Positions 41,801 to 63,289 are shown, numbered from the stretch's first letter. The stretch: 64,000 bases of DNA from Planctomycetaceae bacterium (GCA_018699955.1 JABISG010000147.1:96544-160543), one strand, 5' to 3'. Notes: generated from the letters alone by a model not told the origin. Translations and numbers: made by a program.

Positions 41801-42552
41801 TGTTCGGGGGCAATGTAATCGGGCGTCCCCATCAGCTGCCCGGTGTGCGTCAAGTCGGCTTCGGCCTCGGCATCGGTCATACGGGCAAGGCCCATGTCGA
41901 GCAGCTTGATCACCGGCTCGTTCGAGCTGGTGGCGTGTGTCACCAGCAGATTGCTCGGCTTGATATCGCGATGGACGAGCTTCCGCTCGAATGCGTGTTG
42001 CAGACCTTGTGCCGCCTGCATGATGTAGTGACAGGCTTCGCCAACCGGAAGCGCGCCGTCCCGTTTCACCAGCGAGCCGAGATCCTCGCCATCGACGTAT
42101 TCCATGACCAGAAAATATGTGCTGCCGGCATGATTGGCATCGTAGGCGGCAACGATATTCGGGTGATCGAGCGATGCAGCCGACTGAATTTCCCGGTAAA
42201 ACCGCGCGACCGATTCCTGGTCCTTCATCAGCTTTCGCGCCACCACCTTAATGGCAACCAGCCGGCCGAGCGGTTGCTGCTCCGCTTTGAAGACCGAACC
42301 CATGCCGCCGGCACCGATGCGTTCCAACAGCTTGTACCGGCCTAAGAAGAACGCATGGCGGCCGGCGAGCAACATCTCGGCCTGCCACTGCGTCAGAATT
42401 TGCTGCGCCACGAGCCGCCGCGCGAACTGCTTTGTGTCGCCATTCCCACTGTCGCGAGCGACCTCGTCACGAATCCGAGCCAAATCATCAGCTGCAAGCA
42501 GGCTGCTTTTCTCAAGCCCGTCGAGGAACTGATTCAGCGAAACCGCAGGCAT
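38803..42552 (-). CDS. Ser/Thr protein kinase with Pro/Ala-rich linker, one TM segment and C-terminal WD40 beta-propeller(s)
   Basis: Hanks motifs GAGGMGSVFKA, VAIK, HRDIKPSNLL, DFGLA, APE. TM is IIFGGVGVFLLLVVGYIGWVW. There are 14 or more WD-like repeats (WDVATG, WNVETG...). ATG at 42550-42552. Confidence 0.9.
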   Translation of the reverse strand: MPAVSLNQFLDGLEKSSLLAADDLARIRDEVARDSGNGDTKQFARRLVAQQILTQWQAEMLLAGRHAFFLGRYKLLERIGAGGMGSVFKAEQQPLGRLVAIKVVARKLMKDQESVARFYREIQSAASLDHPNIVAAYDANHAGSTYFLVMEYVDGEDLGSLVKRDGALPVGEACHYIMQAAQGLQHAFERKLVHRDIKPSNLLVTHATSSNEPVIKLLDMGLARMTDAEAEADLTHTGQLMGTPDYIAPEQARDSKTADVRSDIFSLGCTFFRLLTNQVPFTGNTLIEKLLARNERDAPPASSVRGDVPPEIDAIVARMLARNPDNRFQTPAEVVAALVPFAQILPKAATAESTEKTPPPTIAPIAEQTEAVTPAPPASPAGSELQHFLQDLGSEASIMQTDDPSTQTAAEATAFASTAAPMVPVEADESQSNLSASRIRGRRKSGAAQRWIIFGGVGVFLLLVVGYIGWVWTGKTTLIVDWPPEMRAGGSITLNGHKVPLPKQGAIKLSGDPGKQALLLKRKGYEDIEETLSPERGDVVTFQPKWSPKLATVRQEEFTQLVKEFQSINVKQDDEQQLTAIQNRLVEFRRQHPGSPESLEAAWLMWQFKWPVDRLSRQTLTDEQRLIAGNGDIDDAPEQLVAVLGGNRLSHASRDVRSVAFSPDGKLLASSSYDEHIRLWDVATGVHVRTIPVKHWNCHSLSFSPDGSLLAAAYLDFLVGIWNVETGKSVTELPRHEGKVVGVAFSPDGKSIASSDTIGTYLFNSITGKRLQQWPDQRFEIGFNSDGSMLATASQDNDGEITFWNTNTGEAIATELRGRRPFSARGGLLAYRGAGNHLEIWDWKQGGGAYRLTIPLGGGWLPPAISRDGKQLAVFQQGSLAIYDSATGEKREWEKASSPLPRALCLEISPDGETLAAGFQDGSVRFFNAETGQEQFPADGHHGIITSLAVSPNGRRIASAGLDGSVGLWDVVTGKLLRRIDAHIEAIYDIEFLQNGDVLATASQDQLVRLWDTNTGKKLHEMHEHLHPVFALAAHPDGIHLASAGADKGIRVWNTRTYKEVNSLDEHDGYITCLSYSPNGKLLAVGTTAAHIDGVILWDVEKGKRSTTINVADNDCRLIDVQFSANGTRVFFTVRGGGHDAVRIWDLTTGRLGHEPFQGALEEACVASQPQGRIWVRSIGTGSNFVHDTHYGIEEQQFRFGPSPRHVGDVAFTPDGRHLVSGLAGGTICILRLRQWKAEMKKPSEELFD

Positions 42553-42728
42553 AGGACACAAGTGGGAATTCGGGGTTGGTGCATATGGGGGAAAATACGC
42601 GGTTAGAGTGTAGTGGAAGAAGATTTACAAATCTATTGCGTTACACTATCGTCGCGATCGGCGAGCGTCTTCGACTGGGGAAGAGCATCCACTGGTCGAA
42701 GCGCTGACGGCGACATTTTGGCAGCAGT

Positions 42729-43330: not shown

Positions 43331-44065
43331 TCAAATCGGTCGGCGCGCCAAACTGAAGGATTGGCCGGTGGGGCCGTTTTGTTCTTGCGCTGCGAGGAAC
43401 AACGCAAGCGGAACGACGTCTTCGGGCTGCTTGACCCATTCGCTGTTGATGGCCGGATGCGGCCGGTCGGCTTCGAAAATTTCCGACGTCAATTCGGTGT
43501 AGACCGGTCCGGGAATCAACTCGTTGACGGTGATGTTCTCCTCCCACACTTCCAACGCCAGACAGCGAGTGAACATCCAGACGGCCGCCTTGGCCGCATT
43601 GTAGGAACTGTTTTTCGCCCGGGCCTGATGCCCCATGCCGGAGCCGATGTTGATAATCGTCCCGCCGCCCGCGTTTCGTAAATGCGGCAGCACCGCCCGC
43701 GAACAGTAATACGTCCCCAGCAGATTGATCTCGATCACGTTCGCCCAGACGTCGGGATCGTCGTCGCCAACTTGTGTGCGCTCCAATCCGCCGCCCGCGT
43801 TGTTGACGACGATATCGATCCGCCCCAGTTGGGTTGCCGTCGCTTCAACCATCGCTTCAACTTGCACACGGTCGGCAATGTCGGCGGTCACGGCGATGCC
43901 GCGCCGTCCCAATTCCTGAATCTCTGCAGCGACCGCCGCGATTTCACCTTCCGATCGCGCGGTAACACAAACATCGGCCCCTTCGCGGGCGAAAGCCAAC
44001 GCAATCGCACGACCAATGCCACGCCCACCACCGGTAATTAGGGCGACTTTTCCTGCCAACGTCAT
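43331..44065 (-). CDS. SDR-family oxidoreductase (FabG-like 3-oxoacyl-ACP reductase family)
   Basis: TGGGRGIGRAIA Rossmann motif, NNAG, S...Y...K catalytic triad context (YNAAKAAV). Confidence 0.9.
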   Translation of the reverse strand: MTLAGKVALITGGGRGIGRAIALAFAREGADVCVTARSEGEIAAVAAEIQELGRRGIAVTADIADRVQVEAMVEATATQLGRIDIVVNNAGGGLERTQVGDDDPDVWANVIEINLLGTYYCSRAVLPHLRNAGGGTIINIGSGMGHQARAKNSSYNAAKAAVWMFTRCLALEVWEENITVNELIPGPVYTELTSEIFEADRPHPAINSEWVKQPEDVVPLALFLAAQEQNGPTGQSFSLARRPI

Positions 44066-44109
44066 CGGGGAACCTCAAACAAAGCGATTTGTGAAATACT
44101 GGAAACGAC

Positions 44110-44367
44110 TCAGAACAGCAGAATGATTCCCCAGATCAGCATGGCAAGACTTACCAAAACGCCAATGCCGCCGAAGATGAGATACGCCTTGAGAACGCCG
44201 GATTCTCCGATGAATTTGATGAGCAATCGTCCTCGCCAGCCGGTACCGATCGGCAGATTCTCCGTCCAGGCCGCCTAGGCGATTCCGCCAAAGACAAGCA
44301 GCATCAACAGACCAAATGGCAGTTGATAGGGATAATCCAGCATGGCCAGTGTGAGATGGTGGAGCAT
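44110..44367 (-). pseudogene. small two-TM membrane protein ORF interrupted by an in-frame TAG (44275-44277)
   Basis: The hydrophobic reading frame continues unbroken across the TAG (…LLMLLVFGGIA*AAWTENLPIGTGW…LAMLIWGIILLF*); the distal part has no start of its own. Confidence 0.25.
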
Positions 44368-44478
44368 CAGCTCGTCCGATTCTGTTTCAATAAGAAATGC
44401 GAAGCTCAGGCAGAACGAAATTCGACAGTCAGCAGACACAGCATGCCGCTCGCTGTGTGGCAATGCAAGCAAGGCGAG

Positions 44479-44799
44479 CCGAGGGTGTGAACCCTCGGGT
44501 TTTCCGAAGCACCAGCCGGTTCACACCGGCCGCTCGCCGCCCTAATGTTGTACGCGGGTCTCCCGATCCCGCACGCAGCTAGACCGCAGGTCTTCTGTGA
44601 GTTCGGTGAGACCTACGGTCGCGACCTTGGGTCTTTCCCGCGCAGGCGGGAATCCAGCGAGCCAGCAAAAAACGCAAAACTACCATCGACACACCCACGT
44701 CACCCCAACACGCGCCGCACGGTCGTCCGCGAACCGACTGGATTCCCGCCTGCGCGGGAATGACGATTACTGGTTCCCAAGCTCCAGCTTGGGAACCAG
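44479..44799. repeat. non-coding hairpin-rich cluster: terminator-like stem-loop with U tract (44479-44503), a pair of perfect 21-bp inverted repeats (44635-44655 / 44740-44760), and a perfect 14-bp-stem hairpin (44770-44799)
   Basis: All complementarities checked base by base; no credible ORF in this interval. Confidence 0.5.
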
Positions 44800-44816
44800 G
44801 AAAACGAGACCCTTTA

Positions 44817-44858
44817 GAACAAAAGCACACAGATCACTTGATTCTCAAGATAGTCGCT
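44817..44858. repeat. 42-47-bp dispersed repeat, copy 2 (see 356-397)
   Basis: Direct comparison with 356-397. Confidence 0.55.
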
Positions 44859-44864
44859 ACGTCA

Positions 44865-45269
44865 CTACAGGATTCCACCCATTGCGACATACGTGACAAA
44901 ACGCAGCGCCACTACGCACGCCAAGTGAAAAACGACAGCAGTCATGAGTGCAAGAAACCGTAGCGTTTTCGTAACTGTTGTTTGATCGCGGACCAGTGGC
45001 GCAAACGCAGGGACACAAAGACACAGCCCAAGAACAAATGACGTGAGGGTCAGGATTGCCGTGACAGTGTCATACGTCGCCAATGCCCCGGATTCGTAGA
45101 AATCGTAGTCGCCGACATGGCTGCCAAGAGCCAAGATGCTCACGACGCCCACAACGTACGGGACAATCAATCCGATGCCAGCGAAGTATTCGTTTCGCGT
45201 GACCCTTTTAGACGACAATGGTGGTGTTTCAACAGGTGGCTCGAAAGGAGTTTGCGACGGAGTTGCCAT
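44865..45269 (-). CDS. small hypothetical membrane protein
   Basis: 134 aa, Pro-rich N-terminus and three predicted TM helices. Confidence 0.4.
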   Translation of the reverse strand: MATPSQTPFEPPVETPPLSSKRVTRNEYFAGIGLIVPYVVGVVSILALGSHVGDYDFYESGALATYDTVTAILTLTSFVLGLCLCVPAFAPLVRDQTTVTKTLRFLALMTAVVFHLACVVALRFVTYVAMGGIL

Positions 45270-45990
45270 TTGCGTACTTCGCCCAACTGGGTTCTGGCTG
45301 GCTTGGTGAAACGGTGTCGCACGGAAAGATTATTGTCGAACACTCTCGAACATTATCGCAAGATTCGATCTGAGTTCCATCAGGTTTCCTGGATTATGAT
45401 CGAGTGGGCCGTTGACTCGCCAGCTTGCACGGTTGCCCAAGAAGCGAGCAAATGCGGGGTGGTTGGGCGGTTGGTGGCTCACACTTTGTGTGGGAATCGA
45501 GAATTGGGGAATGGCTGATTTCTGCGGGGATACCTTGGTTTTCTTCCGAAAAAACAGGCTCAACCAAGTTTGGCACACGAGTTGCGTTGTGTTCTCTCAA
45601 CTTGATTTACGAAGTACGCAGTCGTGGTTTGGAAACTGCGGCGGTACTGCCTTTGACGCAGCGCTCACGAAGAAGGCACGAAATTCTGATGATACCAGGG
45701 AACGGCAATCAGTTATGCTCAGCCTTCACACGTTTCGCCAATGCGCCTGCTTGGGATTGGACCCCGCGCGGATCGCGTCGAGTTTTCACAAACGCCAGTT
45801 GAACCGAACGGCCGACGGGCAATCTGCCGCGGCACGGAACACGGATCATTGGTCATGCCATCGCCCGCCCTGCCAGCGATGAGACCCACCGACTGTCGCC
45901 GGTCGCGTCTCTCCGGCTGAACCCAGGATGATTTTCCGATGACGGGAAACGTCCGCATTCTCTCCAATTAGCGATAAGGTTACGTACACC

Positions 45991-47373
45991 GTGGAAGTTC
46001 AGAACAAAGCCACCCGGATTCGTCTCTTCGATTTCAAGACCCCACAAATGCGAGCGTTCCATATGTCGTGGTTCGCGTTCTTTCTCTGCTTCTTTGCCTG
46101 GTTTGGCATCGCCCCGCTGATGTCAGTCGTCCGCCAGGAAATGTCGTTGACGCAATCACAGGTCGGCTGGTGCATTATTGGATCGGTCTCGATCACGGTG
46201 ATCGCCCGGCTGTTTATTGGTTGGCTGTGCGACCGGATTGGGCCGCGGCTGGCGTATACGTGGCTGCTGATTCTCGGTGCGTTGCCGGTGATGGGAATCG
46301 GTTTCGCGCAAAACTTTGAAACGTTTCTGCTGGCCCGCGTGTTGATCGGTGTCATCGGGGCATCGTTCGTCATCACGCAGTATCACACGTCGATTATGTT
46401 CGCCCCGAATTGCGTAGGAACGGCGAATGCCACGACGGCCGGCTGGGGCAACATGGGCGGTGGCGTGACGCAGGTGGCGATGCCCGTGCTGTTTGCCGTT
46501 CTCATTGGCACGTTCGGTTTGAGTGACTACTGGGGCTGGCGGACGGCAATGATCGTCGCCGGCGCGATCTGCATGCTGTCGGGGGTTGCGTACTTCTTTC
46601 TCACACAAGACACGGCAGAAGGTAACTACAAGCAGCTGCGGGCGGCGGGAAAGCTGCCAGATAAAAAAGCCGCGAAGGGGGCGTTTCTCGCGGCGTGCAA
46701 AGATCGCCGCGTGTGGGCGTTATTCGTCATCTACGCGGCTTGCTTCGGCATTGAACTGACAATCAACAACATTGCCGCCCTGTATTTTGTCGATCACTTT
46801 GAATTCTTCAAGCAGATGGACACGCTGGAAGCGGTGAAGCTGGCGGGCGTGTTTGCTGCCTTGTACGGCACGATGAATCTGTTTGCCAGAACGCTGGGCG
46901 GAGCAGTCGGCGATAAGTGTGGCGCACGTTGGGGGTTACAAGGCCGAGTGCGATGGCTGTTCATCGCGTTGTTTTGCGAGGGCGTGTCGTTGATGCTGTT
47001 CTCGCAGATGACCGTGCTCGCGCTGGCCGTTCCCGCTTTGATTGTGTTCGCAGCTTTCGTGCAGATGTCGAACGGGGCCACGTTTTCTGTCGTTCCGTTC
47101 GTCAACAAGAAGGCGCTCGGTTCCGTCGCGGGGATTGTGGGCGCCGGTGGAAATGCCGGTGCGGTGTTGGCGGGTTTTCTGTTCAAGACCGACGCGATTT
47201 CGTGGCCGACGGCGCTGTTCCTTCTGGGAGCCATTGTTACCTGCAGTTCGTTTCTGGCCTTCTCAGTGAACTTCAGCGAAGCCGCCGAAACGGAAGCGCG
47301 AACGGCGACCGAAGCGGCCGCGTCGCAGCGGCGCCGTACAGTCGAACTGGCCGGTGCGACATCCGGTTCCTGA
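45991..47373 (+). CDS. narK: MFS nitrate/nitrite transporter, NNP family (NarK/NrtP-like)
   Basis: NNP signatures GWGNMGGG and GxxxGxxNxG; twelve TM helices; GTG start at 45991 (ATG alternatives at 46048 and 46063). Confidence 0.9.
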   Translation: MEVQNKATRIRLFDFKTPQMRAFHMSWFAFFLCFFAWFGIAPLMSVVRQEMSLTQSQVGWCIIGSVSITVIARLFIGWLCDRIGPRLAYTWLLILGALPVMGIGFAQNFETFLLARVLIGVIGASFVITQYHTSIMFAPNCVGTANATTAGWGNMGGGVTQVAMPVLFAVLIGTFGLSDYWGWRTAMIVAGAICMLSGVAYFFLTQDTAEGNYKQLRAAGKLPDKKAAKGAFLAACKDRRVWALFVIYAACFGIELTINNIAALYFVDHFEFFKQMDTLEAVKLAGVFAALYGTMNLFARTLGGAVGDKCGARWGLQGRVRWLFIALFCEGVSLMLFSQMTVLALAVPALIVFAAFVQMSNGATFSVVPFVNKKALGSVAGIVGAGGNAGAVLAGFLFKTDAISWPTALFLLGAIVTCSSFLAFSVNFSEAAETEARTATEAAASQRRRTVELAGATSGS

Positions 47374-47431
47374 TCGATCGCATCTGCAGGAAAAACCATT
47401 AACAGTAGAATCTGATGACGATTGAACAATT

Positions 47432-50302
47432 ATGAGCAATCCGATTGAAGCCTGGAAATCTGAAAAACATCCATTCGATGTCTGGTCCGACGTCGAGAAA
47501 CATGCGGCGGCGAAGACGCCGATGAAGTCGATTGCTGCGCCCGATTTGGAGCGGATGAAGTGGCACGGGTTTTTGTATCGCAAGCGGGATGGGGCAGGGC
47601 GGTACATGAGCCGCATTCGCATCACCGCCGGCGAATTGACCGGGAAGCAGGCCCGCGAGATTGCGCACATTGCGTACGAATACGGTCACGGCATTGTCGA
47701 TGTGACGACCCGCGCCAACCTGCAGATTCAAGGGTTGGGAATCGAACATGTGCCGAAGGTTGTCGAACGGTTGGCGAATGTGGGGCTGTCGGCAAAACAG
47801 ACGGGACACGACAACATTCGCAATGTGTTTGCCCATCCCTTCAGCGGACTGATGCCGGGCGAATTGATCGACACGCGGCAGTTAAGCCACGACGTGACTG
47901 CGTTGTTCATCGACAGTCGGACGTATTCCGATTTGCCGCGGAAGATGAATATCTGCCTGAATGGCACCGACCAGCATTCCGCGCACTTCTGGACACAGGA
48001 CATTAGTTTTCTGGCGACCGAAGTCGATGGCGACGTGTTGTTTCACATGCTGATTGCCGGCACACAGGGACAGAACCCGCATCTCGCGTGGCATCTGCCG
48101 GTGTTGGTGCAGCCGGATCAGGTCGTTGAAGTCACACGGTCACTGCTCGACTTGTTCCGCGCGAAAGGGTCGCGCGAAAAACGTAACGTCACCCGATTTC
48201 GTTTCCTCGTCGAGAAGATCGGCGTGGGGGGCGTGCTCGATTGGCTGGAGGGGGATTTGCCGTTCCCACTGCAACCGTCTGTCGGCGAGCCGTCACCGGC
48301 GACCGGGCACGATGAACTTGTCGGCTGGTTTCGGCAGGCGGAGCCGAAACTGTGGACGATGGGACTTTCGGTTCCGCTGGGCCGCATGACGTGGCAGCAA
48401 CTCGAAGGCTTGGCGCTTTTGAGCGGCAAGTGGGGAGATGGCAATCTGCGGACAACGCACGAGCAGGGGATTGCCGTCGCAAATATTCCGCCTGGTTTTC
48501 GCGAAGCCGCCGCCACCGATGCAGCCGCTGCCGGATTGAGCGTTCATGCCGATCCATTTGAACTGAATACGATGGCCTGCACCGGCAGCCAGTTCTGTAA
48601 CATCGCCGTCACCGAAACCAAGGGGCAGATGTTCCAGCTGATTGAAAAGCTGCGGAAGCGGGCGCTGAAACTGCATGGCATACGTATCCACATGAGCGGT
48701 TGCCCGTCGAGTTGCGCGCAACACTTTACGGCCGACATCGGTTTGAAAGGTGTCCGCGTCCGCCGATTGATGGGGACGCGAGAAGGTTTCGATGTTTACC
48801 TGGGCGGCGGACTGGCGGGCCGCGTTCATATGGGGTTGCCGTTCCGGCTTGGTGTCGATGCCGATCAGCTACCGACGTTGGTGGAAGAGGTCGTTGGTGA
48901 ATTCTATCTGCGACACAAGGCGGGGCAGACCTTCAGCGCGTATTGGCGGGAAAAACTGCAGGCGGCTGAAGCCCGCAAAGTGATCGACGACGATTATCGT
49001 CTTCCCACCTGGTTGTGTGAGAGCTGCGATTACCAACACACGGGCGAAGATCCGCCCATTTATTGCCCGAGTTGTGCCGGCCTGCGTCGACACTTCGCAC
49101 GTCTGGAAGAAGGCGTTTCTCCCGACGCAGAAAAGGATGCCATAGTCGAAACCGTACCGACCCGCGACGACGGGTTTGTCTTCGCCGCAAAACACGATGC
49201 CTTATCCGCCGACGAAGGGCTGACAGTTGAAGTGGGCGGAAGCGAATACGCGTTGTTTCAGGTTGGCGACGACGTGAAGTGCATCGATTCCGCCTGTCCG
49301 CATGAAGGTGCTTCGCTTGCCGAGGGTGAAATGAAGGGCGGTGTCGTCACCTGTCCATGGCACGGCTGGAGATTCAACCCGTGTGACGGTTGCAGTCTCG
49401 ATTCCCCGGGGGACGACGTCGCAGCGTACAGGACGTTGGTTGAAGACGGAAACATTTTCATCGAGGTCGGTTCACCATCACAGGCAAGCAATTCCGGCGC
49501 ACCGAATTCAACGCAGGCGATCCTCGCGACTGCAGGCAAAGGAGCAGCGAAGAAGCCGCCGAGACCGGTGGAAGCGTTGTTGCCGGTGCTTGATGTCATC
49601 GACGAGTCGCCCAACGTTCGCACATTTCGGCTCGATAATTCCGTTGCCAGGATTCCGTTCGATTTGCCCGGTAAGTTTGCCAAGGTTTGCGTTCCCGCTG
49701 ACGATGGCGACGTTTGGCGGAGCTTTACAATCAGTTCTTCGCCCACAGTGACCGACCACATTGATCTGACGATTAAGCTGAACCCCGACGGCTGTGTGTC
49801 TCGGCATCTCTTTGAGAATGCTCAGCCCGGAAGCCATGTGAAAGTGAAGGGCGCACAGGGCGGGTTCTTCTTCGATGCGGAACGGCAAACCGAGCCGTTG
49901 GTGTTGATTTCCGCCGGCAGCGGGATCACACCGATGATGTCAATTGCCCGTTATCTCGATGCCGTCGGCAGTAACTTGGATTGCACATTTCTCTACGGAG
50001 CGCGGTCGTCGGGCGATGTCATCTTCCGCGATGAGTGTGAAGACATGGCGAAACGCCGACCGTCGTTTCGCTATCGTGTCACGCTTTCGCAGCCGAATGA
50101 TGACTGGAGCGGCGAATGCGGGCGGCTCGACTTTGACCGTGTTTCAAGATGGGTGGAGAACATTGGCGAGAGTTGCTACTTCCTCTGTGGACCAAACGAA
50201 TTCATGGACCAGCTGCGATCAGCGCTCGTCGATGCGGGTGTCGATTCGGATCATATTCACAGCGAAGAGTTTCACAGTTCACCAACACCGGTTGCGTTGT
50301 GA
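47432..50302 (+). CDS. nirA: multidomain nitrite reductase: siroheme/[4Fe-4S] ferredoxin-type nitrite reductase (NirA-like), rubredoxin-like zinc ribbon, Rieske [2Fe-2S] (NirD-like) and FNR-like FAD/NAD(P)-binding reductase
   Basis: NiR/SiR cluster motifs (CTGSQFC, SGCPSSC). CxxC...CPSC ribbon. Rieske CPHEG...CPWHGW. FNR motifs RSFTISS and ISAGSGITPM. 956 aa. Confidence 0.9.
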   Translation: MSNPIEAWKSEKHPFDVWSDVEKHAAAKTPMKSIAAPDLERMKWHGFLYRKRDGAGRYMSRIRITAGELTGKQAREIAHIAYEYGHGIVDVTTRANLQIQGLGIEHVPKVVERLANVGLSAKQTGHDNIRNVFAHPFSGLMPGELIDTRQLSHDVTALFIDSRTYSDLPRKMNICLNGTDQHSAHFWTQDISFLATEVDGDVLFHMLIAGTQGQNPHLAWHLPVLVQPDQVVEVTRSLLDLFRAKGSREKRNVTRFRFLVEKIGVGGVLDWLEGDLPFPLQPSVGEPSPATGHDELVGWFRQAEPKLWTMGLSVPLGRMTWQQLEGLALLSGKWGDGNLRTTHEQGIAVANIPPGFREAAATDAAAAGLSVHADPFELNTMACTGSQFCNIAVTETKGQMFQLIEKLRKRALKLHGIRIHMSGCPSSCAQHFTADIGLKGVRVRRLMGTREGFDVYLGGGLAGRVHMGLPFRLGVDADQLPTLVEEVVGEFYLRHKAGQTFSAYWREKLQAAEARKVIDDDYRLPTWLCESCDYQHTGEDPPIYCPSCAGLRRHFARLEEGVSPDAEKDAIVETVPTRDDGFVFAAKHDALSADEGLTVEVGGSEYALFQVGDDVKCIDSACPHEGASLAEGEMKGGVVTCPWHGWRFNPCDGCSLDSPGDDVAAYRTLVEDGNIFIEVGSPSQASNSGAPNSTQAILATAGKGAAKKPPRPVEALLPVLDVIDESPNVRTFRLDNSVARIPFDLPGKFAKVCVPADDGDVWRSFTISSSPTVTDHIDLTIKLNPDGCVSRHLFENAQPGSHVKVKGAQGGFFFDAERQTEPLVLISAGSGITPMMSIARYLDAVGSNLDCTFLYGARSSGDVIFRDECEDMAKRRPSFRYRVTLSQPNDDWSGECGRLDFDRVSRWVENIGESCYFLCGPNEFMDQLRSALVDAGVDSDHIHSEEFHSSPTPVAL

Positions 50303-50310
50303 GGTGGGCG

Positions 50311-52059
50311 ATGCAAGCTGTTGAACATGAAACGACTCAATCGACCAGGGCATCCGTCGTCGGGGAGCCATTGCTGCCGATTGTCGAAGTCCGTCGATGT
50401 GATGATGACGGGGGATCGCTCATCGCGTTGCTGCTCGCCGAACAGCAACAGTTGACCGCGGTCGAACAATTCAGCCGCGAACAGAAGATCGGCGACGTTC
50501 CAGCGCAGGCAAAGCATTACACAAAGCTGCTTCCGGCGACTGCTCCGGCTGAGGGGCAACAGTATGCTTTCGAGGTCGATCTCGATCGCTGTTCCGGTTG
50601 CATGGCCTGTGTTACTGCCTGTCATTCGTTGAACGGGTTGGACGAGGATGAGACGTGGCGCGACGTCGGTTTGATGATTGGCGGCACGTCTTCTAATCCA
50701 ATCAAGCAGCATGTGACGACGGCCTGTCATCATTGTCTCGAACCGGCCTGCATGATCGCTTGCCCCGTCGATGCTTACGAGAAGGATCCGGTCACCGGCA
50801 TCGTCAAGCATCTCGACGATCAATGCTTTGGCTGCCAATATTGCACGCTCGCCTGCCCGTATGATGTCCCCAAGTACCATCACAAAAAGGGCATCGTCCG
50901 CAAGTGTGACATGTGCAGTTCGCGTTTGGCTGTGGGTGAAGCACCGGCGTGCGTGCAGGCGTGTCCTCACGAAGCGATTGCGATCACGTTGGTTGAAACC
51001 CGTGACGTCAAAGAAAACGCCGAGGCCGACTACTTCCTGCCGGCGGCCCCCGAACCGCACCTCACGTTTCCGACCACTCATTACAAGACGTCGCGGGTGT
51101 TTCCCCGCAATACGCTGCCCGTTGATTACCACGCGACAAGCCCGCAGCATCCTCATTGGCCGCTGATTCTCATGCTGGTTCTTACGCAGTTATCGGTCGG
51201 CGCTTTTGTTGCGGGGCTTGTGTTGGATGAGGTTTTGAATTCCGCGCTGTTGGCTGCCTTTGCACCGTTGCATGCCACCACCGCGCTCATATTCGGGTTG
51301 CTGGCGCTCGGGGCCAGCACGCTGCATTTGGGGCGACCGCAATTCGCGTTTCGTGCCATCGTGGGATTACGGCATTCGTGGCTCAGCCGCGAGATATTGG
51401 CATTCGGACTGTTCGCGGGAGCTGCGATTGTTTTCTCTGCGTCATCATGGGTCGATTGGTCACCTGGGTGGTTGAACTATGGGCTGGGATGGTGCGTTGC
51501 CGTCACCGGAATTGGCGGCGTCTTCTGCTCGGTGATGCTCTATGCCTTCACGCGACGTGAATTCTGGAGCTTTCCACAAACGGCCACCAGGTTCGTGCTG
51601 ACGTCGGCCATGCTCGGCATTGCCGCGACATGGCTTTCTATTTTGTTGGTTGGTGTTGTCGGTGAGAGTCGTTCGGCCCACGAACTGGCCACCGTTGCCG
51701 GCGACAAGTTATCGCAATCGCTCATCGCTTTAGCAGCAGCCAAATTGCTGTTCGAGATGTCGTTGTTTCGACATCTCGCCGCACGTCGTGTGACGCCCTT
51801 GAAACGGTCCGCCTGGTTAATGTTGGGACGACTTTCAAATCACAGTTTGGCGCGATTTGCACTCGGACTGCTTGGCGGAATCTGTATGCCGCTGTTTCTG
51901 CTGAGCCGACATGCGGTCGGTGCCGATTCGGCCGGCGTGATTGAAGTGATCATTGTTGCAATGCTGTTTGCTGCCTGCCTGGTGGGCGAATTGCTCGAGC
52001 GCTACCTGTTTTTCGCCGCTTGTTCGGCCCCACGAATGCCGGGATTGCACAGTGGTTAG
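50311..52059 (+). CDS. 4Fe-4S ferredoxin (DmsB-like, four Cys clusters) fused to an NrfD/DmsC-like polytopic membrane anchor
   Basis: Four CxxCxxCxxxCP motifs at residues about 95-250, then eight or more TM helices. GAGGTG RBS, ATG at 50311, 8 bp after the nirA stop. Confidence 0.8.
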   Translation: MQAVEHETTQSTRASVVGEPLLPIVEVRRCDDDGGSLIALLLAEQQQLTAVEQFSREQKIGDVPAQAKHYTKLLPATAPAEGQQYAFEVDLDRCSGCMACVTACHSLNGLDEDETWRDVGLMIGGTSSNPIKQHVTTACHHCLEPACMIACPVDAYEKDPVTGIVKHLDDQCFGCQYCTLACPYDVPKYHHKKGIVRKCDMCSSRLAVGEAPACVQACPHEAIAITLVETRDVKENAEADYFLPAAPEPHLTFPTTHYKTSRVFPRNTLPVDYHATSPQHPHWPLILMLVLTQLSVGAFVAGLVLDEVLNSALLAAFAPLHATTALIFGLLALGASTLHLGRPQFAFRAIVGLRHSWLSREILAFGLFAGAAIVFSASSWVDWSPGWLNYGLGWCVAVTGIGGVFCSVMLYAFTRREFWSFPQTATRFVLTSAMLGIAATWLSILLVGVVGESRSAHELATVAGDKLSQSLIALAAAKLLFEMSLFRHLAARRVTPLKRSAWLMLGRLSNHSLARFALGLLGGICMPLFLLSRHAVGADSAGVIEVIIVAMLFAACLVGELLERYLFFAACSAPRMPGLHSG

Positions 52060-52083
52060 TCACACCTTGCCTCTCCTCAAATT

Positions 52084-54288
52084 ATGAACGACAACACCGC
52101 CACAATTCGTGAATTGCTGCATCAGCGGTCTGGGCCGCTTACTCGGGAATTGATGCTCGAGCCGGGCCGATTCGGTTTGGGCCAGGTTCCCGCGTCCGCC
52201 AAACCCGATGCGACGACGGGCATGGTGTGCGGATACTGTTCGACGGGTTGCAATCTCAACGTTCACCTCAAAGAGGGCGAAGCGGTCGGTCTCTCGCCGA
52301 CGACCGATTATCCCGTCAATCTGGGGATGGCCTGCCCAAAGGGGTGGGAAGCGCTCACCGTGCTTGACTCAGCTGACCGTGCCACAACGCCGTTGTTGAG
52401 AAACCCGGGCGGACGATTGGAACCAGTCGAATGGGAAACCGCGATGCGGACCTTCGTTGATCGCTTCAAGGGAATTCAAGAGAAGCATGGCAAGCATTCG
52501 GTTGCGTTTCTGGGGACGGGGCAAATCCCAACCGAAGAGATGGCGTTACTCGGCGCGTTGACGAAATTCGGCATGGGGATTCTGCACGGAGATGGCAACA
52601 CGCGGCAATGCATGGCGACATCGGTGGTCGCCTACAAGCAGGCCTTCGGTTTCGATGCGCCCCCTTACACTTATGCCGACTTTGAAGAGTCGGACGTTAT
52701 CGTCCTCGTCGGCAGCAACCTCTGCATTGCGCATCCCATTATGTGGGAACGTGTGATGCGAAACCCGCATCAGCCGGAAATCGTCGTCATCGATCCGCGC
52801 ATGACCGAGACGGCGATGAACGCCACCCAGCATCTGCCGCTTGCGCCGAAATCCGATCAATCACTGCTCTACGGCATCGCCCGCATACTTATCGAAAACG
52901 ACTGGATCGATCATCGATTTGTTGAAGCGGCGACCAACGAATTTGCCGAGTTCGTCGAATTCGTGGCGCCGTTCACCGACGATCGCGTTGCCAATGACAC
53001 GGGGCTGACGGCCGAACAACTCCACCGATTCGCCGAGACGATCCACGGCGGCAAACGCGTTTCCTTCTGGTGGACGATGGGGGTCAATCAAAGTTATCAA
53101 GGCGTTCGCACGGCGCAGGCGATTATCAACCTTGCGCTAATGACTGGCAACATCGGCCGGCCCGGCACCGGTGCGAATTCTATTACCGGTCAATGCAACG
53201 CGATGGGTTCGCGGCTTTTCAGCAACACGAGCAATCTGCTTGGAGGACATGACTTCACGAATGCCGAACATCGGAAAAAGATTGCCGGCATTCTCGACAT
53301 CGATGCCGAGGCGATCCCCACTGAAAACAGTTGGGCTTACAACGAAATTATTGAGGGGATTCTGCGAGGCAAGATCAAAGGGTTGTGGGTCATTTGCACG
53401 AACCCTGCGCATTCCTGGATCAATCAGAACCAATGTCGCGACATTCTCGACCGGCTCGACTTTCTCGTCGTGCAGGACATGTATGCTAATACCGAGACGG
53501 CAGAGATGGCCGACCTTGTTCTGCCGGCTGCCGGCTGGGGTGAAAAGGAAGGAACCTTCATCAATTCCGAACGCCGCATCGGTGTTCTCAAGAAGGTGGC
53601 CAAGGCTCCCGGTCAAGCGATTTCCGATTTCAACATCTTCAAACTCGTTGCGCACTACTGGGGCTGCGGCGAGATGTTCGAGCGTTGGCAGACGCCCGAA
53701 GACGTCTTCCAGATTCTCAAGCAATGCTCGGCGGGACAGCCGTGCGATATCACTGGGATCGAAGGCTATCGGCACATCGATCAAGGCGGCGGTATTCAAT
53801 GGCCGTTTGCGTCCGGCGATATCGAAGCGACGCGGGAACGGCGTCTATTCGAAGACGGGCAGTTCTTTCATCCCGACGGCAAAGCGAGATTCCTGTTCGA
53901 GGAACCTCGTCCGTTAAGCGAACCGCCCACCAAGCGCTTTCCGTTCATCCTGCTCACCGGACGGGGGACGGCTTCTCAGTGGCACACGCAGACCCGAACC
54001 GGGCAGTCGGCTGTACTGCGGAAGCTGTACCCGAAAAAGCTCATCGTCGAAATCAATCCGGCCGATGCCGAGCGCCTGCAGATTGGTCCGGGGGAGCGGG
54101 TGGTCGTGAAATCACAGCGCGGCCGCATCGAGGCACGCGCCTTTCTCACGCCGACCATTCAACGCGGCCAGGTTTTCGTGGCGATGCACGACCGCACGGT
54201 CAACCAGCTAACCGATGCGGTCTTCGACCCGTATTCCAGGCAGCCCTCGTACAAGGCGTGTGCCGTGCAAGTTATGCGGCATCCGTAA
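52084..54288 (+). CDS. nasA: assimilatory-type molybdopterin nitrate reductase catalytic subunit (NasA/NarB-like), no Tat signal
   Basis: N-terminal [13 protein letters not shown] [4Fe-4S] motif, MopB core and C-terminal molybdopterin dinucleotide-binding barrel; 734 aa. Confidence 0.9.
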
Positions 54289-54321
54289 ACGGGCATTGCC
54301 TGGTCTGTTAACTGCCGACGG

Positions 54322-55842
54322 TTAATACTGCAGCGTTGTCATCAGGTACAATTGTTTGGCGTCGTCTCGTGGCAGGTTCTGGTTCACGAAGGCACCGTAC
54401 CAAAACAATGAGTAACCCAGTTGCACGTTGAGGTTTTTGTTGACCTTGTATTTCGCGATCAGGTCGAGTTCTTCACCAATGTCGCGGCTGCCGCCGACGG
54501 CACCAAACGGAACGCGTGCAACGTTGTAGGCGGTGTCGCTCGTTTTCGCTCGATCAAAAAAGTGAAACGCGGCAACGAGTTTCAAGCGGTCCGTCGGTTT
54601 GACGTCGGCCTGAATGCTGTAATCGAGCAGGTTCTGCCCGCTGAGGTTGTCGATAATTCCCCAGTAAGAGTGTCCGAACGGATACAGCACGTCGAAGGTG
54701 TTGCTTTGGCCGTCGTTGGGGTCATCATCGCCCGACCCCCAATAGAAGAGTCCGCCGATACGTGGTTGCCAGGCGACGTTTTTCCAGCGATGACCGCCTT
54801 GCATCGTAAAGAACCCGGCGCTGACATCCGCCCCGGCATCGGAACCAAACTGATAGGCACCTTCCATGTCGAAGTCCCAGACGCGAGCAACGTTGCAGCA
54901 GCAATCGGTGATGGGAATCTCACCGCCATAACGCATCCCGATGGTGTGCCGACGACCGCCCACGGGGAGACGCGCCGCGCGGCTATCTTCTTTCCACAAC
55001 CAGTACAAATCGAGAGTGCGGTTTTCATAACCTTTGTAAGAGGTGTAAAGGCCGGTGAATTGGACATCGTGTCCTGGTCGGTCGCGTTCGTTGTCTTGAA
55101 GGGCAAGCGCGGTTTCACGTGTGGTGCTGTTGACCGGATTGGCTGTGAACAGATCGATGTCCCAGTCGCAAGTTGTCATATACAGGCGATGGCCCTGAAA
55201 GTTCCGCCGCGTGTTTGCCCAGTCGAGCGTAGAGACCAGGCGTTGTTTTCCGTACTGCAAGTCCTGGCGACCGTAACGATACCAACTGTCGGCTTCGCTC
55301 CAGAGGGGGACTCGAACTTCCGCGTAGGCGTTGAGCAGATCCCAACGGTTCTTGTCGATCGAAAGAGCTGGAAGTTCCTCGTCGAAAATCGATGCATCAA
55401 TTCCTTCGACATAGACGCGTGCCCAATCGCTCACGTTCAATTGGACGAAGTGCCGCCATCGCCAGAGATCGTACGTGCTGCGGCCCGGCCCTCCGGGACG
55501 AATGCGATCGTCTTCATCGATGTAACGGTATCGTAATTCGCCACCGGTCGAGAGCGTTACGCCGTCAGACAAACAGACGTCTCGCAGGTTGTGTAAAAGG
55601 AGTTCGTCACTGTTCAGCCAATGGTCGCATGATCCACCGCCGGTCTCGCAGAGGTAGTCGATGGGCTGAGTGTCGTTGCCGGAAAAAATGATCTCGGCTG
55701 CGGATTCGTCACTTGTGCTGCTGACATCGAGTGTCGGCTCATTCGTCGCCGACTCGTTCGTGTCGGTTTCTTCAGCTGCAGAGAGAAACGGCGTACAGCT
55801 GAGAATCAAAGCACAAAGGTGAACGCGTATGAAGAGTGGCAT
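54322..55842 (-). CDS. outer-membrane beta-barrel porin, alginate-export (AlgE-like) family candidate
   Basis: Signal peptide (MPLFIRVHLCALILSCTPFLSAAE), alternating amphipathic beta strands rich in Y/W/G, C-terminal ...TTLQY. ATG at 55840-55842. Confidence 0.65.
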   Translation of the reverse strand: MPLFIRVHLCALILSCTPFLSAAEETDTNESATNEPTLDVSSTSDESAAEIIFSGNDTQPIDYLCETGGGSCDHWLNSDELLLHNLRDVCLSDGVTLSTGGELRYRYIDEDDRIRPGGPGRSTYDLWRWRHFVQLNVSDWARVYVEGIDASIFDEELPALSIDKNRWDLLNAYAEVRVPLWSEADSWYRYGRQDLQYGKQRLVSTLDWANTRRNFQGHRLYMTTCDWDIDLFTANPVNSTTRETALALQDNERDRPGHDVQFTGLYTSYKGYENRTLDLYWLWKEDSRAARLPVGGRRHTIGMRYGGEIPITDCCCNVARVWDFDMEGAYQFGSDAGADVSAGFFTMQGGHRWKNVAWQPRIGGLFYWGSGDDDPNDGQSNTFDVLYPFGHSYWGIIDNLSGQNLLDYSIQADVKPTDRLKLVAAFHFFDRAKTSDTAYNVARVPFGAVGGSRDIGEELDLIAKYKVNKNLNVQLGYSLFWYGAFVNQNLPRDDAKQLYLMTTLQY

Positions 55843-56389
55843 AGCGACGTCCTCACGTGTGGGAGAGCTGGGTGGCGGGGGGATGGGAATGGTGGGGAGT
55901 GGACCGGATGTGATTCGATCCACAGCAGAAGAATCGGCTACTGCGAGAAAATGACTACAGAGAATCAACACAACCACGGCCGGTTGTCGGTTGATCGTTG
56001 AAAGCCAGCTAAAAAAACGCGATTGCCGATCCAACCGACACAAGTGCCAGCAAGATCACAAGCCGGTCAATGCGAACGGGCGAGCTGTGAAATGTGCGAT
56101 TTCGAGTGTTGCGCCGGCTGTGGATCGAACCGGAATCCGGCGTTTATGGGTAGTATTCCGACCCGGCATCCCTGTTGTCTCAGTGACGTAATTCTCTGCT
56201 GGTCCGATTGTGCAGATCACAACATTCTTGCGTCGTGAACACTCTGCCGCACGGACGGCGCCGCCGTACTCCCAGTAATATTCCTCCGCGCATGCTCCCA
56301 AAATGCAACTATGCTTTGGCTGTATTAGTACGGGAATCCACCGACAAAGGTTGACGGGGTAGTTTCCCTGCGCAAGCAAGGAGTTTTCG

Positions 56390-56842
56390 ATGAGCGGACT
56401 GAATTCACCTCTGACAATTGACGACCAATCCAATTCGTCCGAACCCACGCTGGTTCTGGATGGCAAGCAGGTCTTGCTGGCAGAGGACTGTGTCGATCAA
56501 GGGCGCCTCTATCTTAGGTTCCTCGAACGAGCGGGAACGGACGTCACGCTGGAGTGCAGCGGGCAGTCGGCGGTTGACGCGGTAGAAAAGTCACCGACGC
56601 GTTTTGATGCCGTCGTGATGGATTTCCAGATGCCGGAATTAGACGGGCTTGAAGCGACCGAGCGACTGCGAGCGCTGGGCTACACCGGGCCAATTATTGC
56701 AGTGACGGCGTTTTCATCGGAGGAGCTGAGATTGGCCTGGTTCAAGGCTGGCTGCGATGAATTCCTCGAAAAGCCGCTGACGAAAGCCACACTGATCAAG
56801 ACCGTCATGCAACATACGGCCACGGTGAGCGAAACGGTCTAA
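56390..56842 (+). CDS. response regulator, stand-alone receiver (CheY-like) domain
   Basis: Strong RBS AAGGAG. Receiver residues DD...D(54 equivalent, VVMDFQMP)...T...K. Confidence 0.85.
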   Translation: MSGLNSPLTIDDQSNSSEPTLVLDGKQVLLAEDCVDQGRLYLRFLERAGTDVTLECSGQSAVDAVEKSPTRFDAVVMDFQMPELDGLEATERLRALGYTGPIIAVTAFSSEELRLAWFKAGCDEFLEKPLTKATLIKTVMQHTATVSETV

Positions 56843-63100: not shown

Positions 63101-63289
63101 ATGTTCAGCCAGTTTTTCCACCGACGGTGCGACAAACCCCGAGCCGATCACGGTCGGATCGCCCGGCTCCCCCGCAGACTGTTCGCGGCTCTCGAACCCC
63201 AGTTGCATCAAACACTTCGGGCAGACGCCCTCGGGGGCATCGGCGGGAAGTTCGGCATCGCATTGGGGGCATTGTCGGATTTCGGTCAT
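60194..63289 (-). CDS. Ser/Thr protein kinase with N-terminal zinc ribbon, large polytopic membrane domain with internal repeats, and C-terminal extracytoplasmic domain
   Basis: CPQCDAELP...CPKC ribbon. Hanks motifs GKGGMGAVYKA, HRDIKPENVL, DFGLA, APE. Ten or more TM helices with the duplicated module ...P(F/I)GIWAL..LS..DV.DAF. Confidence 0.9.
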   Translation of the reverse strand: MTEIRQCPQCDAELPADAPEGVCPKCLMQLGFESREQSAGEPGDPTVIGSGFVAPSVEKLAEHFPQLEIIELLGKGGMGAVYKARQPSLDRLVALKILPPEIGKDPAFAERFMREARALAMLNHTCIVAVYDFGEADGLYYFVMEYVDGANLRQTIEAGGLQPKEALAIVPQICDALQFAHEEGVVHRDIKPENVLIDKRGRVKIADFGLAKLLGVDAENSPGEKPFTLTGTNQVMGTLQYMAPEQMRGSHDVDHRADIYSLGVVFYEMLTGELPIGRFQPPSKKVQVDVRLDEVVLRSLESEPERRYQHASDVKKEVESILTTAGILPPAAQSISTADNALVRGRLKVPAIGLLVAGIVNLLATLSIVLIPVVITLLSNGKGMGIPGPTELLVVACSLAMGTMLIAGAVRMFDLQSHRIAVIAAVIAVLPCTLGFLISLPFGIWALIVLSKPDVQDAFAGHGQLPQSPTRVPQSSTMEAVAGKGNAPTAALPAGAGPAPVSSSTWESVPPRFSRKAIWGAAWAPLFFIVAFGSVYLQTVRQVNSSTMSGSSITETTSRPVGSSVSTTTPPPATVIDRQTPSPGPEWWQWVLICTALPLGLAAPFGTTILGTIAISDIRHSQNRLVGLPLAVGDALLFPLLLLDVLICFVVAALVSIGISTIQDVMGIEGSHAGVNVMLPMLVALPMAILVDVLICRAVWRKASRPLHEPTDSETPHGTDEADAVCRQLRGPGIGLVFTGIANWLVLPFLIAMSSYLSLAEPAPGPSATVFGSVAAAIFVFSALMIFSGLRIMRCESRGLGIFAAVLAMIVTPGNVIGFPIGIWALVALSGSDVKDAFKRKEADSGSNGSFTGWAILLVVLAIGSVVGLGVSAYLNNGNKTGNASGESNADELIDFTVQSQDGHPTFTFDGVTMVFEGIETENNNTQSGGQMPADGGGKVTIDIAGRGVGITGTSGPAGVNSVSVNGYSFELHRNCTQLWPLFPERGAPLDLGILTRPLTIWIDGDGIYRLQEQPVTPTAPDSQPAESEEN

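Follow-up and report, generated by a model that had tools for sequence, protein, structure and literature searches.

The described systems closest to the locus considered here differ in how electrons reach a siroheme/[4Fe-4S] centre. In ferredoxin-dependent nitrite reductase (Fd-NiR, NirA, EC 1.7.7.1; for example, spinach 2AKJ, tobacco Nii3 3B0G and cyanobacterial NirA), the protein ends after a catalytic module that consists of two NIR_SIR_ferr/NIR_SIR repeats with a CX5C...CX3C cysteine pattern and an Arg/Arg/Lys/Asn site, and free ferredoxin is needed. In the NirBD, NasB-NasG and NasDE enzymes (EC 1.7.1.4), which include a Rieske-fold partner, electrons pass from NAD(P)H to a flavin, then to a small Fe-S carrier and on to [4Fe-4S]-siroheme; NirB itself begins with a glutathione-reductase-fold Pyr_redox_2 flavin module and has a BFD-type [2Fe-2S] domain. 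The same logic recurs in the fused NirB+NirD proteins of Gimesia and eukaryotes, and in common proteins of ~1000 aa that combine Pyr_redox_2 and BFD with a full NirA module. Dedicated flavoproteins also feed the siroheme/[4Fe-4S] hemoproteins of two sulfite reductases, E. coli CysJ/CysI and F420-dependent Fsr, and a general analogy is offered by the P450RhF-type 'self-sufficient' P450s and P450-BM3, in which a tether joins a catalytic haemoprotein to an NAD(P)H reductase of its own.

We analysed a stretch of 64,000 nt from Planctomycetaceae bacterium (GCA_018699955.1 JABISG010000147.1:96544-160543; hereafter the window), in which a sequence-only reading had proposed that a single 956-aa polypeptide joins a NirA-type nitrite reductase to a CxxC...CxxC ribbon, a Rieske centre and a ferredoxin-NAD(P) reductase (FNR)-like domain. 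Indeed, the ORF (47432..50302, + strand) runs uninterrupted from an ATG at 47432 to a TGA at 50300-50302, and its 956-aa product is identical to GenBank MBT4864651.1. Pfam, NCBIfam and motif positions all reproduce the proposed order of NirA, rubredoxin-like ribbon (Rbx), Rieske and FNR; every motif quoted beforehand was located in the protein, and the Pfam families NIR_SIR_ferr, NIR_SIR, Rieske, FAD_binding_6 and NAD_binding_1 each score above the gathering score. Relative to canonical NirA, with which it shares the catalytic module and a role in nas operons, the protein has 436 extra residues comprising Rbx, Rieske and FNR.

This architecture is confirmed as real, far beyond what chance would produce, and it is not rare. 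Over 120 protein clusters with identities of 59-73% have it in full length, and all 16 metal ligands together with the FAD and NAD motifs, whose absence on alignment would have spoken against a reductase domain, are invariant in 119 homologues. The same fusion was sought in other Planctomycetota and found in cultured members, being collinear in the isolates Maioricimonas rarisocia and Thalassoroseus pseudoceratinae, and it is also present on complete, long-read Vicinamibacterales (Acidobacteriota) chromosomes. An assembly error or frameshift that artificially joined separate genes is therefore extremely improbable, and we reject it: identical protein accessions come from several metagenome-assembled genomes (MAGs), the collinear full-length clusters include isolates and complete chromosomes, and the boundaries of the Rieske+FNR segment are in frame relative to a near relative that does not have it (L084). 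Frameshifts do occur at some long-read MAG loci (L083, L021, L031, L056 and L078), where they act in the opposite direction and split the gene. Similarly, of the apparent stand-alone Rieske-FNR proteins of ~500 aa, the one checked (P0129, L083) proved to be the full fusion broken by a frameshift in a long-read assembly and no separate gene, and we accept none of them as an architecture of its own.

The NirA-type siroheme/[4Fe-4S] module (aa 1-520; 47432..48991, +) is delimited by Pfam, NCBIfam, PDB alignment and Foldseek. NIR_SIR_ferr (112 bits) and NIR_SIR (124 bits) each match two stretches, the best at aa 49-116 and 127-276, and Foldseek gives TM scores of 0.81-0.85 against 3B0G (tobacco), 2AKJ (spinach) and 1ZJ8. 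The cluster/siroheme cysteines, C383-x5-C389 and C424-x3-C428 (48578..48715, +), lie in the motifs CTGSQFC (383-389) and CPSSC (424-428) and are invariant in 119 sequences. Likewise, the anion- and siroheme-binding residues R94, R130, K171 and N173 align with R109, R179, K224 and N226 of plant nitrite reductase and are invariant in the 119 homologues, as is His126, which occupies the position of tobacco Met175. The module is predicted to bind siroheme and to reduce nitrite to ammonium with six electrons, a prediction that the operon context supports.

The naming of such proteins is less straightforward. GenBank calls MBT4864651.1 a "precorrin-3B synthase", one homologue is named 'sulfite reductase [ferredoxin]' by NCBI, and the M. 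tuberculosis 'NirA' proved to be a sulfite reductase. Moreover, the CobG model TIGR02435 scores 237.7, barely over its cutoff of 234.8, and the NirA equivalog cutoffs are missed (NF007125, 347 bits against 594; NF007126, 338 bits against 523). These two NirA models are nevertheless the best-scoring families for the module, far ahead of CobG at 238 and of the sulfite reductase models at 146 or less, a pattern that points to a divergent subfamily. The closest solved relatives are the tobacco and spinach Fd-NiRs (E about 1e-74, about 31% identity), with weaker matches to M. tuberculosis SirA (1e-46) and E. coli SiRHP (1e-19); a NarK transporter and a NasA-type nitrate reductase accompany the gene in two phyla; and inspection of the large ORFs of the window revealed no cob or cys genes. 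We therefore consider it very improbable that the module is a sulfite reductase or a CobG precorrin-3B synthase and, given the relative scores and the gene context, reject both readings. The fusion is judged not to be a CobG member, the "precorrin-3B synthase" label is almost certainly wrong, and the nitrite reductase assignment of the sequence-only reading is upheld by the PDB ranking, the retained anion-site residues and the operon.

Beyond the catalytic module lie three further domains. The rubredoxin-like ribbon (aa 527-557; 49010..49102, +) has the pattern W-x-C529-x2-C532 ... EDPP-x2-C545-P-x-C548 ... RR-x-F-x-R, with the motifs CESC (529-532) and CPSC (545-548). Its match to PF21349 RUBY_RBDX (aa 527-555, 24.8 bits) falls just short of the cutoff of 26.5, which the ribbon of a homologue, P0241, clears with 27.0 bits. 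The four cysteines are invariant in 119 homologues, and the ribbon is kept even in the shortest natural variants.

The Rieske [2Fe-2S] domain (aa 581-680; 49172..49471, +) matches PF00355 over aa 584-660 with 59.7 bits and is modelled by AF2 with pLDDT above 90. Its ligands C622, H624, C641 and H644, in the motifs CPHEG (622-626) and CPWHGW (641-646), are invariant in the same 119 homologues. The domain had been described as NirD-like; the Rieske centre stands, but the NirD resemblance does not, since it scores below threshold for the NirD small-subunit model TIGR02378 (39.4 against 74.65) and for Rieske_2 (24.5 against 27). The nearest solved structures are oxygenase Rieske ferredoxins (CarAc, T4moC), and from these comparisons the domain is assigned to the true cluster-binding Rieske ferredoxin type rather than to NirD.

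The C-terminal FNR-type reductase (FAD_binding_6 at aa about 713-813 and NAD_binding_1 at aa about 822-947; 49568..50272, +) is identified by Pfam (FAD_binding_6, aa 720-813, 53.7 bits; NAD_binding_1, aa 825-928, 59 bits), by NCBIfam and by Foldseek, which returns TM 0.86 to the flavohaemoglobin FAD/NAD domain. It includes RSFTISS (763-769), GSGITPM (829-835), CGP (919-921) and a C-terminal aromatic residue, F947. FNR/PDR-type reductases such as Hcr, GbcB, BenC and MmoC share FAD_binding_6, NAD_binding_1 and the RxFT, GxGxxP and CGP motifs. However, these reductases have a plant-type Fer2 [2Fe-2S] domain, which a Pfam/NCBIfam profile search did not find in the fusion; here a Rieske domain stands N-terminal to the flavin domain instead. 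Consistent with this, the alignments to the best-matching NCBIfam models, GbcB and Hcr, end at profile positions 253/362 and 240/333.

Nor does the fusion belong with NirB: Pfam detected neither Pyr_redox_2 nor Fer2_BFD in the protein, and the NirB model TIGR02374 matches the siroheme part only (52.7 bits against a cutoff of 578). Where NirB has an N-terminal glutathione-reductase-fold module, the fusion has a C-terminal domain of the unrelated FNR fold, together with Rieske and rubredoxin-like elements, so that its likeness to NirBD, with which it shares its place in the operon's function, is one of convergence and not of family membership. CysJ/CysI and Fsr differ in their diflavin CPR-like protein or F420H2 oxidase, in substrate and in the absence of Rieske and rubredoxin elements. 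In the AF2 model the domains are well folded, with a pTM of only 0.63, and are separated by two disordered linkers, one between Rieske and FNR (aa 684-707; 49481..49552, +) and a shorter one at aa 565-574 (49124-49153, +), both with pLDDT below 50 and both falling in length-variable, gap-rich alignment columns.

The gene order around the fusion is almost always NarK, fusion, DmsB/DmsC-like Fe-S membrane protein and NasA-type nitrate reductase, and about 65 of 80 related loci, from two phyla, keep this operon with NarK and a NasA-type enzyme. In the window, a NarK-family nitrate/nitrite MFS transporter (45991..47373, +; TIGR00886, 287 bits; 66/80 loci) lies 58 nt upstream of the fusion. A protein that unites a DmsB-like 4Fe-4S part with a DmsC-like membrane anchor (50311..52059, +; 65/80 loci) starts 8 nt past the fusion stop; it has about eight hydrophobic segments and no Tat motif. 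It is followed by a NasA/NasC-type molybdopterin nitrate reductase (52084..54288, +; 67/80 loci), which is without a Tat motif and was assigned to the cytoplasm. An Rfam scan of the whole window returned zero matches, and a promoter and terminator scan of 44000-56500 gave nothing beyond shuffled expectation.

Taken together, we favour, with some confidence, the reading that the fusion is the assimilatory nitrite reductase of this narK-nirA-dmsBC-like-nasA operon, equipped with a tethered NAD(P)H donor chain, and that it probably takes electrons directly from NAD(P)H. In the sequence of events that we propose, NAD(P)H would reduce the FAD of the C-terminal FNR-type domain, single electrons would pass from FAD to a low-potential-type Rieske [2Fe-2S] cluster and then, probably, to an Fe(Cys)4 centre in the rubredoxin-like ribbon packed beside the catalytic module, and from there to the [4Fe-4S]-siroheme core at aa 1-520, where nitrite would be reduced to ammonium. 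The two flexible linkers would permit the necessary domain movement. The NAD(P)H dependence, the cofactor occupancy and the order of transfer in this scheme are deduced from domain content and conserved ligands. With such a chain the enzyme would not need to depend on free ferredoxin.

Natural variants bear on this reading in several ways. In two loci (L001 and L040), a 726-aa NirA-Rbx-Rieske gene and a separate 242-aa FNR gene, with an overlap of 4 nt, stand at the same operon position, a Rosetta-stone case that supports the NAD(P)H wire. Other operons that are otherwise identical encode shortened enzymes, either NirA-Rbx-Rieske, as in L030 and L043, or NirA-Rbx without Rieske. For example, L084, which is about 85% identical in DNA across the operon, is without exactly the 1,116 nt of an in-frame Rieske+FNR cassette (49180..50295, +, delimited by blastn break points). 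Overall, no FNR is found nearby in about 40% of related loci (34 loci), six of which are also missing Rieske. The Rieske+FNR segment therefore behaves as an optional cassette, missing in many close relatives. Across this family, an FNR is always accompanied by Rieske and a single indel takes out both, as would fit FNR-to-Rieske coupling. At the same time, loci without FNR or Rieske imply that the NirA-Rbx core must have another donor there and that the cassette is dispensable; where present, it would give an NAD(P)H link to a NirA-Rbx core that otherwise depends on ferredoxin or another donor.

These shorter enzymes also lend something to a quite improbable alternative, in which the protein would be a ferredoxin-dependent NirA of the usual kind and the ribbon a structural Zn finger, and Rieske and FNR would serve cluster repair, protection against NO or O2, or redox sensing. 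The ribbon could be purely structural and Zn-binding, which would count against the wire, and in the 956-aa protein it falls under the Pfam threshold. Redox potentials add to the case: rubredoxin-type centres typically lie at about 0 mV and Rieske ferredoxins at about -150 mV, both much more positive than the nitrite reductase [4Fe-4S]/siroheme at about -300 mV or lower, so that the final transfer would be uphill unless tuned. However, 119 sequences show no change in any ligand of Rbx, Rieske, FAD or NAD, sensor or output domains are absent, and NAD(P)H-flavin reductases of two unrelated folds have each been joined to NirA in independent events. In fact, other lineages combine NirA and Rbx and/or Rieske with an unrelated rubredoxin-reductase-type flavoprotein (P0254, P0252 and P0244), and in P0266 NirA is fused to Rbx and FNR without Rieske. 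From these architectures, an NAD(P)H-linked NirA fusion appears to be a convergent design of independent lineages, although a search with P0254 found its NirA-Rieske-Rbx-rubredoxin-reductase design to be rare (two clusters), so the argument from convergence rests on few sequences.

A weightier alternative, which we still consider unlikely, is that Rieske and FNR are the main or an additional NAD(P)H entry for the neighbouring nitrate reductase, through FNR, Rieske, the DmsB-like protein and Mo-bisMGD, much as in the Paracoccus NasB-NasG-NasC chain, with the NirA fusion merely reflecting one complex. NADH-dependent reduction of both nitrite and nitrate in Paracoccus needs the Rieske protein NasG, which feeds NasC (PMC5424462), a precedent open to either reading. 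The order Rieske, FNR, Fer4-DmsC, molybdenum nitrate reductase is conserved, and in Gimesia aquarii a free FNR, 48% identical, lies directly upstream of the DmsBC-like and nitrate reductase genes, with a NirB+NirD fusion on its other side; because the NirBD-type enzyme has its own flavin domain, this FNR may also serve nitrate reductase. Against this, Fer4-DmsC and nitrate reductase persist in the 34 loci without FNR and the six without Rieske, the nitrate reductase already owns a dedicated Fe-S protein and membrane anchor as partner, and the covalent tether joins the module to NirA and not to nitrate reductase. Retention of the nitrate reductase genes in clusters without Rieske and FNR indicates that nitrate reductase does not need the cassette, which makes the cis partner NirA the most parsimonious electron recipient.

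The preferred reading, a NirA core fed by its own tethered chain, can be extended to the operon as a whole, tentatively and with the combined proposal more doubtful than favoured. The four adjacent products may form one membrane-tethered nitrate-to-ammonium machine with two inlets, in which quinol would supply the DmsC-like anchor, the DmsB-like Fe-S protein and the cytoplasmic NasA-type reductase, while NAD(P)H would supply the NirA core through FNR, Rieske and Rbx. The cassette would then be a plug-in, repeatedly gained and lost, that switches the donor regime and differs even at about 85% DNA identity, within a system transferred between Planctomycetota and Vicinamibacterales.

A full-text search of open-access papers found no description of the NirA-Rbx-Rieske-FNR architecture. 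For Planctomycetes only NirB-type NAD(P)H nitrite reductase is discussed (PMC6400420), and nothing beyond plain NirA or a NirA-rhodanese fusion is mentioned in the Nitrospina genome paper and an archaeal fusion survey. The design is uncharacterised and often mislabelled, and it varies a familiar theme; since siroheme nitrite reductases that depend on NAD(P)H have been described before, no principle is overturned. If the family is NAD(P)H-linked, the consequences would nonetheless be broad. Oceans and soils harbour Planctomycetota and Vicinamibacterales in abundance, and how these bacteria assimilate nitrate is generally deduced from KEGG-style calls of the kind "nirA = ferredoxin-dependent". 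In both groups, models of nitrite assimilation would then misstate its reductant cost and its regulation, and many database entries, among them "precorrin-3B synthase", "sulfite reductase [ferredoxin]" and the generic "Rieske domain protein", would be in error. In addition, the family provides a natural series for the accretion of electron-chain domains (core, +Rbx, +Rieske, +FNR and the split-gene form), and a single-polypeptide catalyst of NAD(P)H:nitrite-to-ammonium reduction would serve biocatalysis and biosensing.

Next to the operon on the opposite strand, an Alginate_exp-family outer-membrane beta-barrel (54322..56043, -) is encoded; it is present in 32 of the 80 loci and recurs beside related nas clusters, that of L001 included.

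The 956-aa fusion is encoded by a single uninterrupted ORF on the + strand (47432-50302), running from ATG 47432 to TGA 50300-50302. Every motif named in the sequence-only reading was found in its place, and the layout it proposed, a NirA-type enzyme followed by a ribbon, a Rieske centre and an FNR-like reductase, was borne out by Pfam. Matches above gathering thresholds comprised two stretches each for NIR_SIR_ferr and NIR_SIR, Rieske (aa 584-660), FAD_binding_6 (aa 720-813) and NAD_binding_1 (aa 825-928); the CxxC-x12-CxxC ribbon (aa 527-555) scored just under threshold as a rubrerythrin-type rubredoxin domain (24.8 versus 26.5 bits). The AF2 model (pLDDT 86.9, pTM 0.63) predicted well-folded domains and two disordered linkers between them, at aa 565-574 and 684-707.

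This fusion is genuine. A homologue search of 5.8 billion proteins revealed at least 120 clusters with 59-73% identity, nearly all of 940-1020 aa and with the same domain set, and holders include the isolates Maioricimonas rarisocia and Thalassoroseus pseudoceratinae. The identical protein has four GenBank accessions (MBT4864651.1 and others), all MAG-derived and assigned to a Planctomycetaceae bacterium. A locus scan using one genome per GTDB species yielded 80 loci, with the full-length fusion present in Planctomycetaceae, Pirellulales and Isosphaeraceae and, unexpectedly, in many Vicinamibacterales (Acidobacteriota), including complete chromosomes of 5-7.8 Mb. The same architecture therefore recurs in other Planctomycetota, and the possibility raised earlier of an artefactual join is countered by the clusters, isolates and complete chromosomes alike. 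A neighbour-joining tree built on the NirA part placed the acidobacterial sequences in one clade nested inside planctomycete diversity, indicating a single inter-phylum transfer.

Judged from its sequence, the fusion belongs, as a divergent member, to the NirA branch of siroheme enzymes in the NiR/SiR superfamily, much as first proposed for its siroheme/[4Fe-4S] core. The highest NCBIfam scores, 347 bits for ferredoxin-nitrite reductase and 338 bits for "NirA family", stayed under the respective equivalog cutoffs, and the cutoff of the CobG model TIGR02435 was exceeded by only 3 bits (237.7 versus 234.8), which explains the mixed GenBank/JGI names: MBT4864651.1 is deposited as 'precorrin-3B synthase', and relatives as 'sulfite reductase [ferredoxin]', ferredoxin-nitrite reductase or merely 'Rieske 2Fe-2S domain-containing protein'. 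The nearest solved structures were tobacco and spinach Fd-NiR (E about 1e-74), followed by M. tuberculosis NirA/SirA (1e-46) and E. coli SiRHP (1e-19), and the AF2 model superposed on NiR structures with a TM of 0.81-0.85. In the HMMER alignment R94, R130, K171 and N173 corresponded to the NiR anion-site residues R109, R179, K224 and N226 (spinach numbering). H126 (window 47807-47809) paired with tobacco Met175, a column in which the M175E mutant chain 3B0J carries 'e'. These anion-site residues, H126 and the cluster cysteines C383, C389, C424 and C428 were invariant across 119 homologues. His126 lies within the motif QTGHDNxRN, and the tobacco Met175 position adjoins the substrate pocket; together with N390 and I391, which stand where tobacco NiR has G447 and Q448, it marks an active-site departure from plant and cyanobacterial NirA.

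The fusion gene is the second of four close-set + strand genes. It is preceded by a NarK-family transporter (45991-47373; 58-nt gap) and followed after 8 nt by a DmsB-like Fe-S protein fused to a DmsC-like membrane anchor (50311-52059) and, 24 nt further, by a NasA/NasC-type molybdopterin nitrate reductase without a Tat signal (52084-54288). A convergent Alginate_exp-family porin gene lies downstream (54322-56043, - strand). When these window proteins were run by tblastn against the 80 loci, many of them cut by contig ends, NarK was matched in 66 loci, the Fe-S/anchor protein in 65 loci, the nitrate reductase in 67 loci and the porin in 32 loci. A look through the large ORFs of the window turned up no cobalamin genes and none for sulfate assimilation. 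This gene content marks the set as a nitrate-assimilation (nas) operon, with the fusion gene as its predicted nitrite reductase. The Fe-S/anchor protein combines a multi-[4Fe-4S] DmsB-like part with a DmsC/NrfD-like membrane part of about 8 hydrophobic segments, and its pairing with a Tat-less (cytoplasmic) NasA-type enzyme in 65-67 of the 80 loci, across two phyla, points to an assimilatory nitrate reductase that would be anchored in the membrane and possibly linked to quinol. To our knowledge such a pairing has not been described.

The full fusion was found in about 40 of the 80 loci. Two further loci (L001 and L040) carry a split form in the same operon slot, namely a 726-aa NirA-Rbx-Rieske gene and a separate gene for a 242-aa FNR that share a 4-nt overlap. 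About 29 loci from both phyla encode NirA-Rbx-Rieske proteins of 690-765 aa and lack an FNR within 9 kb, and six (L063, L072, L073, L077, L079, L084) have just NirA-Rbx, at about 570-590 aa. The different forms are scattered across the NirA tree, so the modules have been repeatedly lost or gained. Most clearly, L084 is 82-85% identical to the window in DNA across the whole operon, yet lacks exactly nt 49180-50295 (boundary at L084 4267-4268): an in-frame, 1,116-nt cassette coding for Rieske and FNR, with the GC content of its surroundings (56.5%), in clean presence/absence polymorphism. Within the family FNR never occurs without Rieske, and the ribbon is kept in all forms. In the one case examined, a stand-alone "Rieske-FNR" protein proved to be a frameshift artefact. 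One Vicinamibacteraceae MAG (CAZMWA01) holds two paralogous nas clusters, L014 and L054, one with the full fusion and the other with an FNR-less NirA-Rbx-Rieske protein.

The accessory redox domains have strictly conserved ligands and motifs. Invariant across 119 sequences were the ribbon cysteines C529, C532, C545 and C548, the Rieske ligands C622, H624, C641 and H644, the flavin motif F765, T766 and S769, and the nucleotide motif G829-S-G-x-T-P834 with CGP 919-921 and C-terminal F947; the FAD/NAD motifs thus withstood closer alignment. The Rieske domain had first been called NirD-like, but NirD models scored under threshold, and its nearest relatives were Rieske ferredoxins of the oxygenase type: CarAc, naphthalene dioxygenase ferredoxin and T4moC. 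Extra disulfide cysteines mark high-potential Rieske proteins; the CPHEG...CPWHGW loops have none, indicating the low-potential type. The FNR part is similar to the reductase domains of Hcr, GbcB and flavohaemoglobin but lacks their plant-type Fer2 domain.

The most economical reading, supported by these comparisons, is that the fusion would be an NAD(P)H-linked assimilatory nitrite reductase, because the accessory ligands are invariant, a split-gene form exists, FNR strictly accompanies Rieske, the module is tethered in cis to NirA, and nitrate-reductase genes persist in clusters without the cassette. Other lineages also fuse NirA to flavoproteins: P0254, P0252 and P0244 join NirA with Rbx and/or Rieske to an unrelated rubredoxin-reductase-type flavoprotein, and P0266 joins NirA, Rbx and FNR without Rieske. 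A precedent is the Rieske protein NasG of Paracoccus: NADH-dependent reduction of both nitrite and nitrate requires it (PMC5424462). Electrons would pass from NAD(P)H to FAD in the FNR domain, then to the Rieske [2Fe-2S], on (via an Fe-rubredoxin-like ribbon) to the [4Fe-4S]-siroheme and finally to nitrite. We consider such a cis wire somewhat probable. Against it, many relatives do without the cassette, which means that the NirA core has to take electrons from some other donor; Rbx and Rieske centres typically have potentials ill suited to reducing the NiR cluster; and the ribbon may bind Zn. Rieske and FNR might instead act mainly or jointly in nitrate reduction. Indeed, the Gimesia aquarii operon (L082, CP037422.1, 3572-12763) has the same skeleton with another nitrite reductase, a 991-aa NirB+NirD fusion that already includes a flavin domain. 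After it come a free 256-aa FNR (48% identical to the window fusion's FNR domain) and then the DmsBC-like and nitrate-reductase genes, an order suggesting a possible role of FNR, sole or additional, in the nitrate-reductase branch. Clusters lacking the cassette still keep those genes. We regard a main or joint role in nitrate reduction as rather unlikely.

Read as an NAD(P)H-linked enzyme, the fusion would act like NirBD/NasBG (EC 1.7.1.4), yet it falls outside that family, since it has neither Pyr_redox_2 nor BFD and its NirD match is below threshold. Its FNR-fold reductase is tethered at the C terminus, and the resemblance to NirB is convergent. The proposed likeness to P450-BM3 can be accepted as a kinship in concept with P450RhF/BM3-type fusions. 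The fusion embodies no new principle: Nitrospirota and Gemmataceae commonly carry ~1000-aa proteins that join Pyr_redox_2 and BFD domains to a full NirA module, so NAD(P)H-linked enzymes built on this module are in principle nothing new. We found no description of the NirA-Rbx-Rieske-FNR architecture in the part of the literature covered, open-access full text. Widespread, uncharacterised and often mis-annotated, this architecture documents the gain and loss of modules with unusual clarity.

Several features of the surroundings deserve mention. The Alginate_exp-family (AlgE-like, anion-selective) outer-membrane beta-barrel recurs beside nas operons of this kind in both Planctomycetota and Vicinamibacterales (also L001 2224-3702), and could be a nitrate/nitrite porin. 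Upstream of narK, about 1.9 kb (44066-45990) holds short ORFs only; the two scanned gave no Pfam match and the region no Rfam match. Related loci instead have a NarX/NarL-like pair (PilJ-HisKA and response regulator) near narK, and 44066-45990 may be a regulatory region. The nas cluster is flanked by large Ser/Thr-kinase proteins (38803-42561 and 60194-63289, both - strand), one with a long WD40 array, and by a 1,848-aa DUF3686/AAA ATPase (33156-38702, + strand); such large kinases are in keeping with a planctomycete genome.
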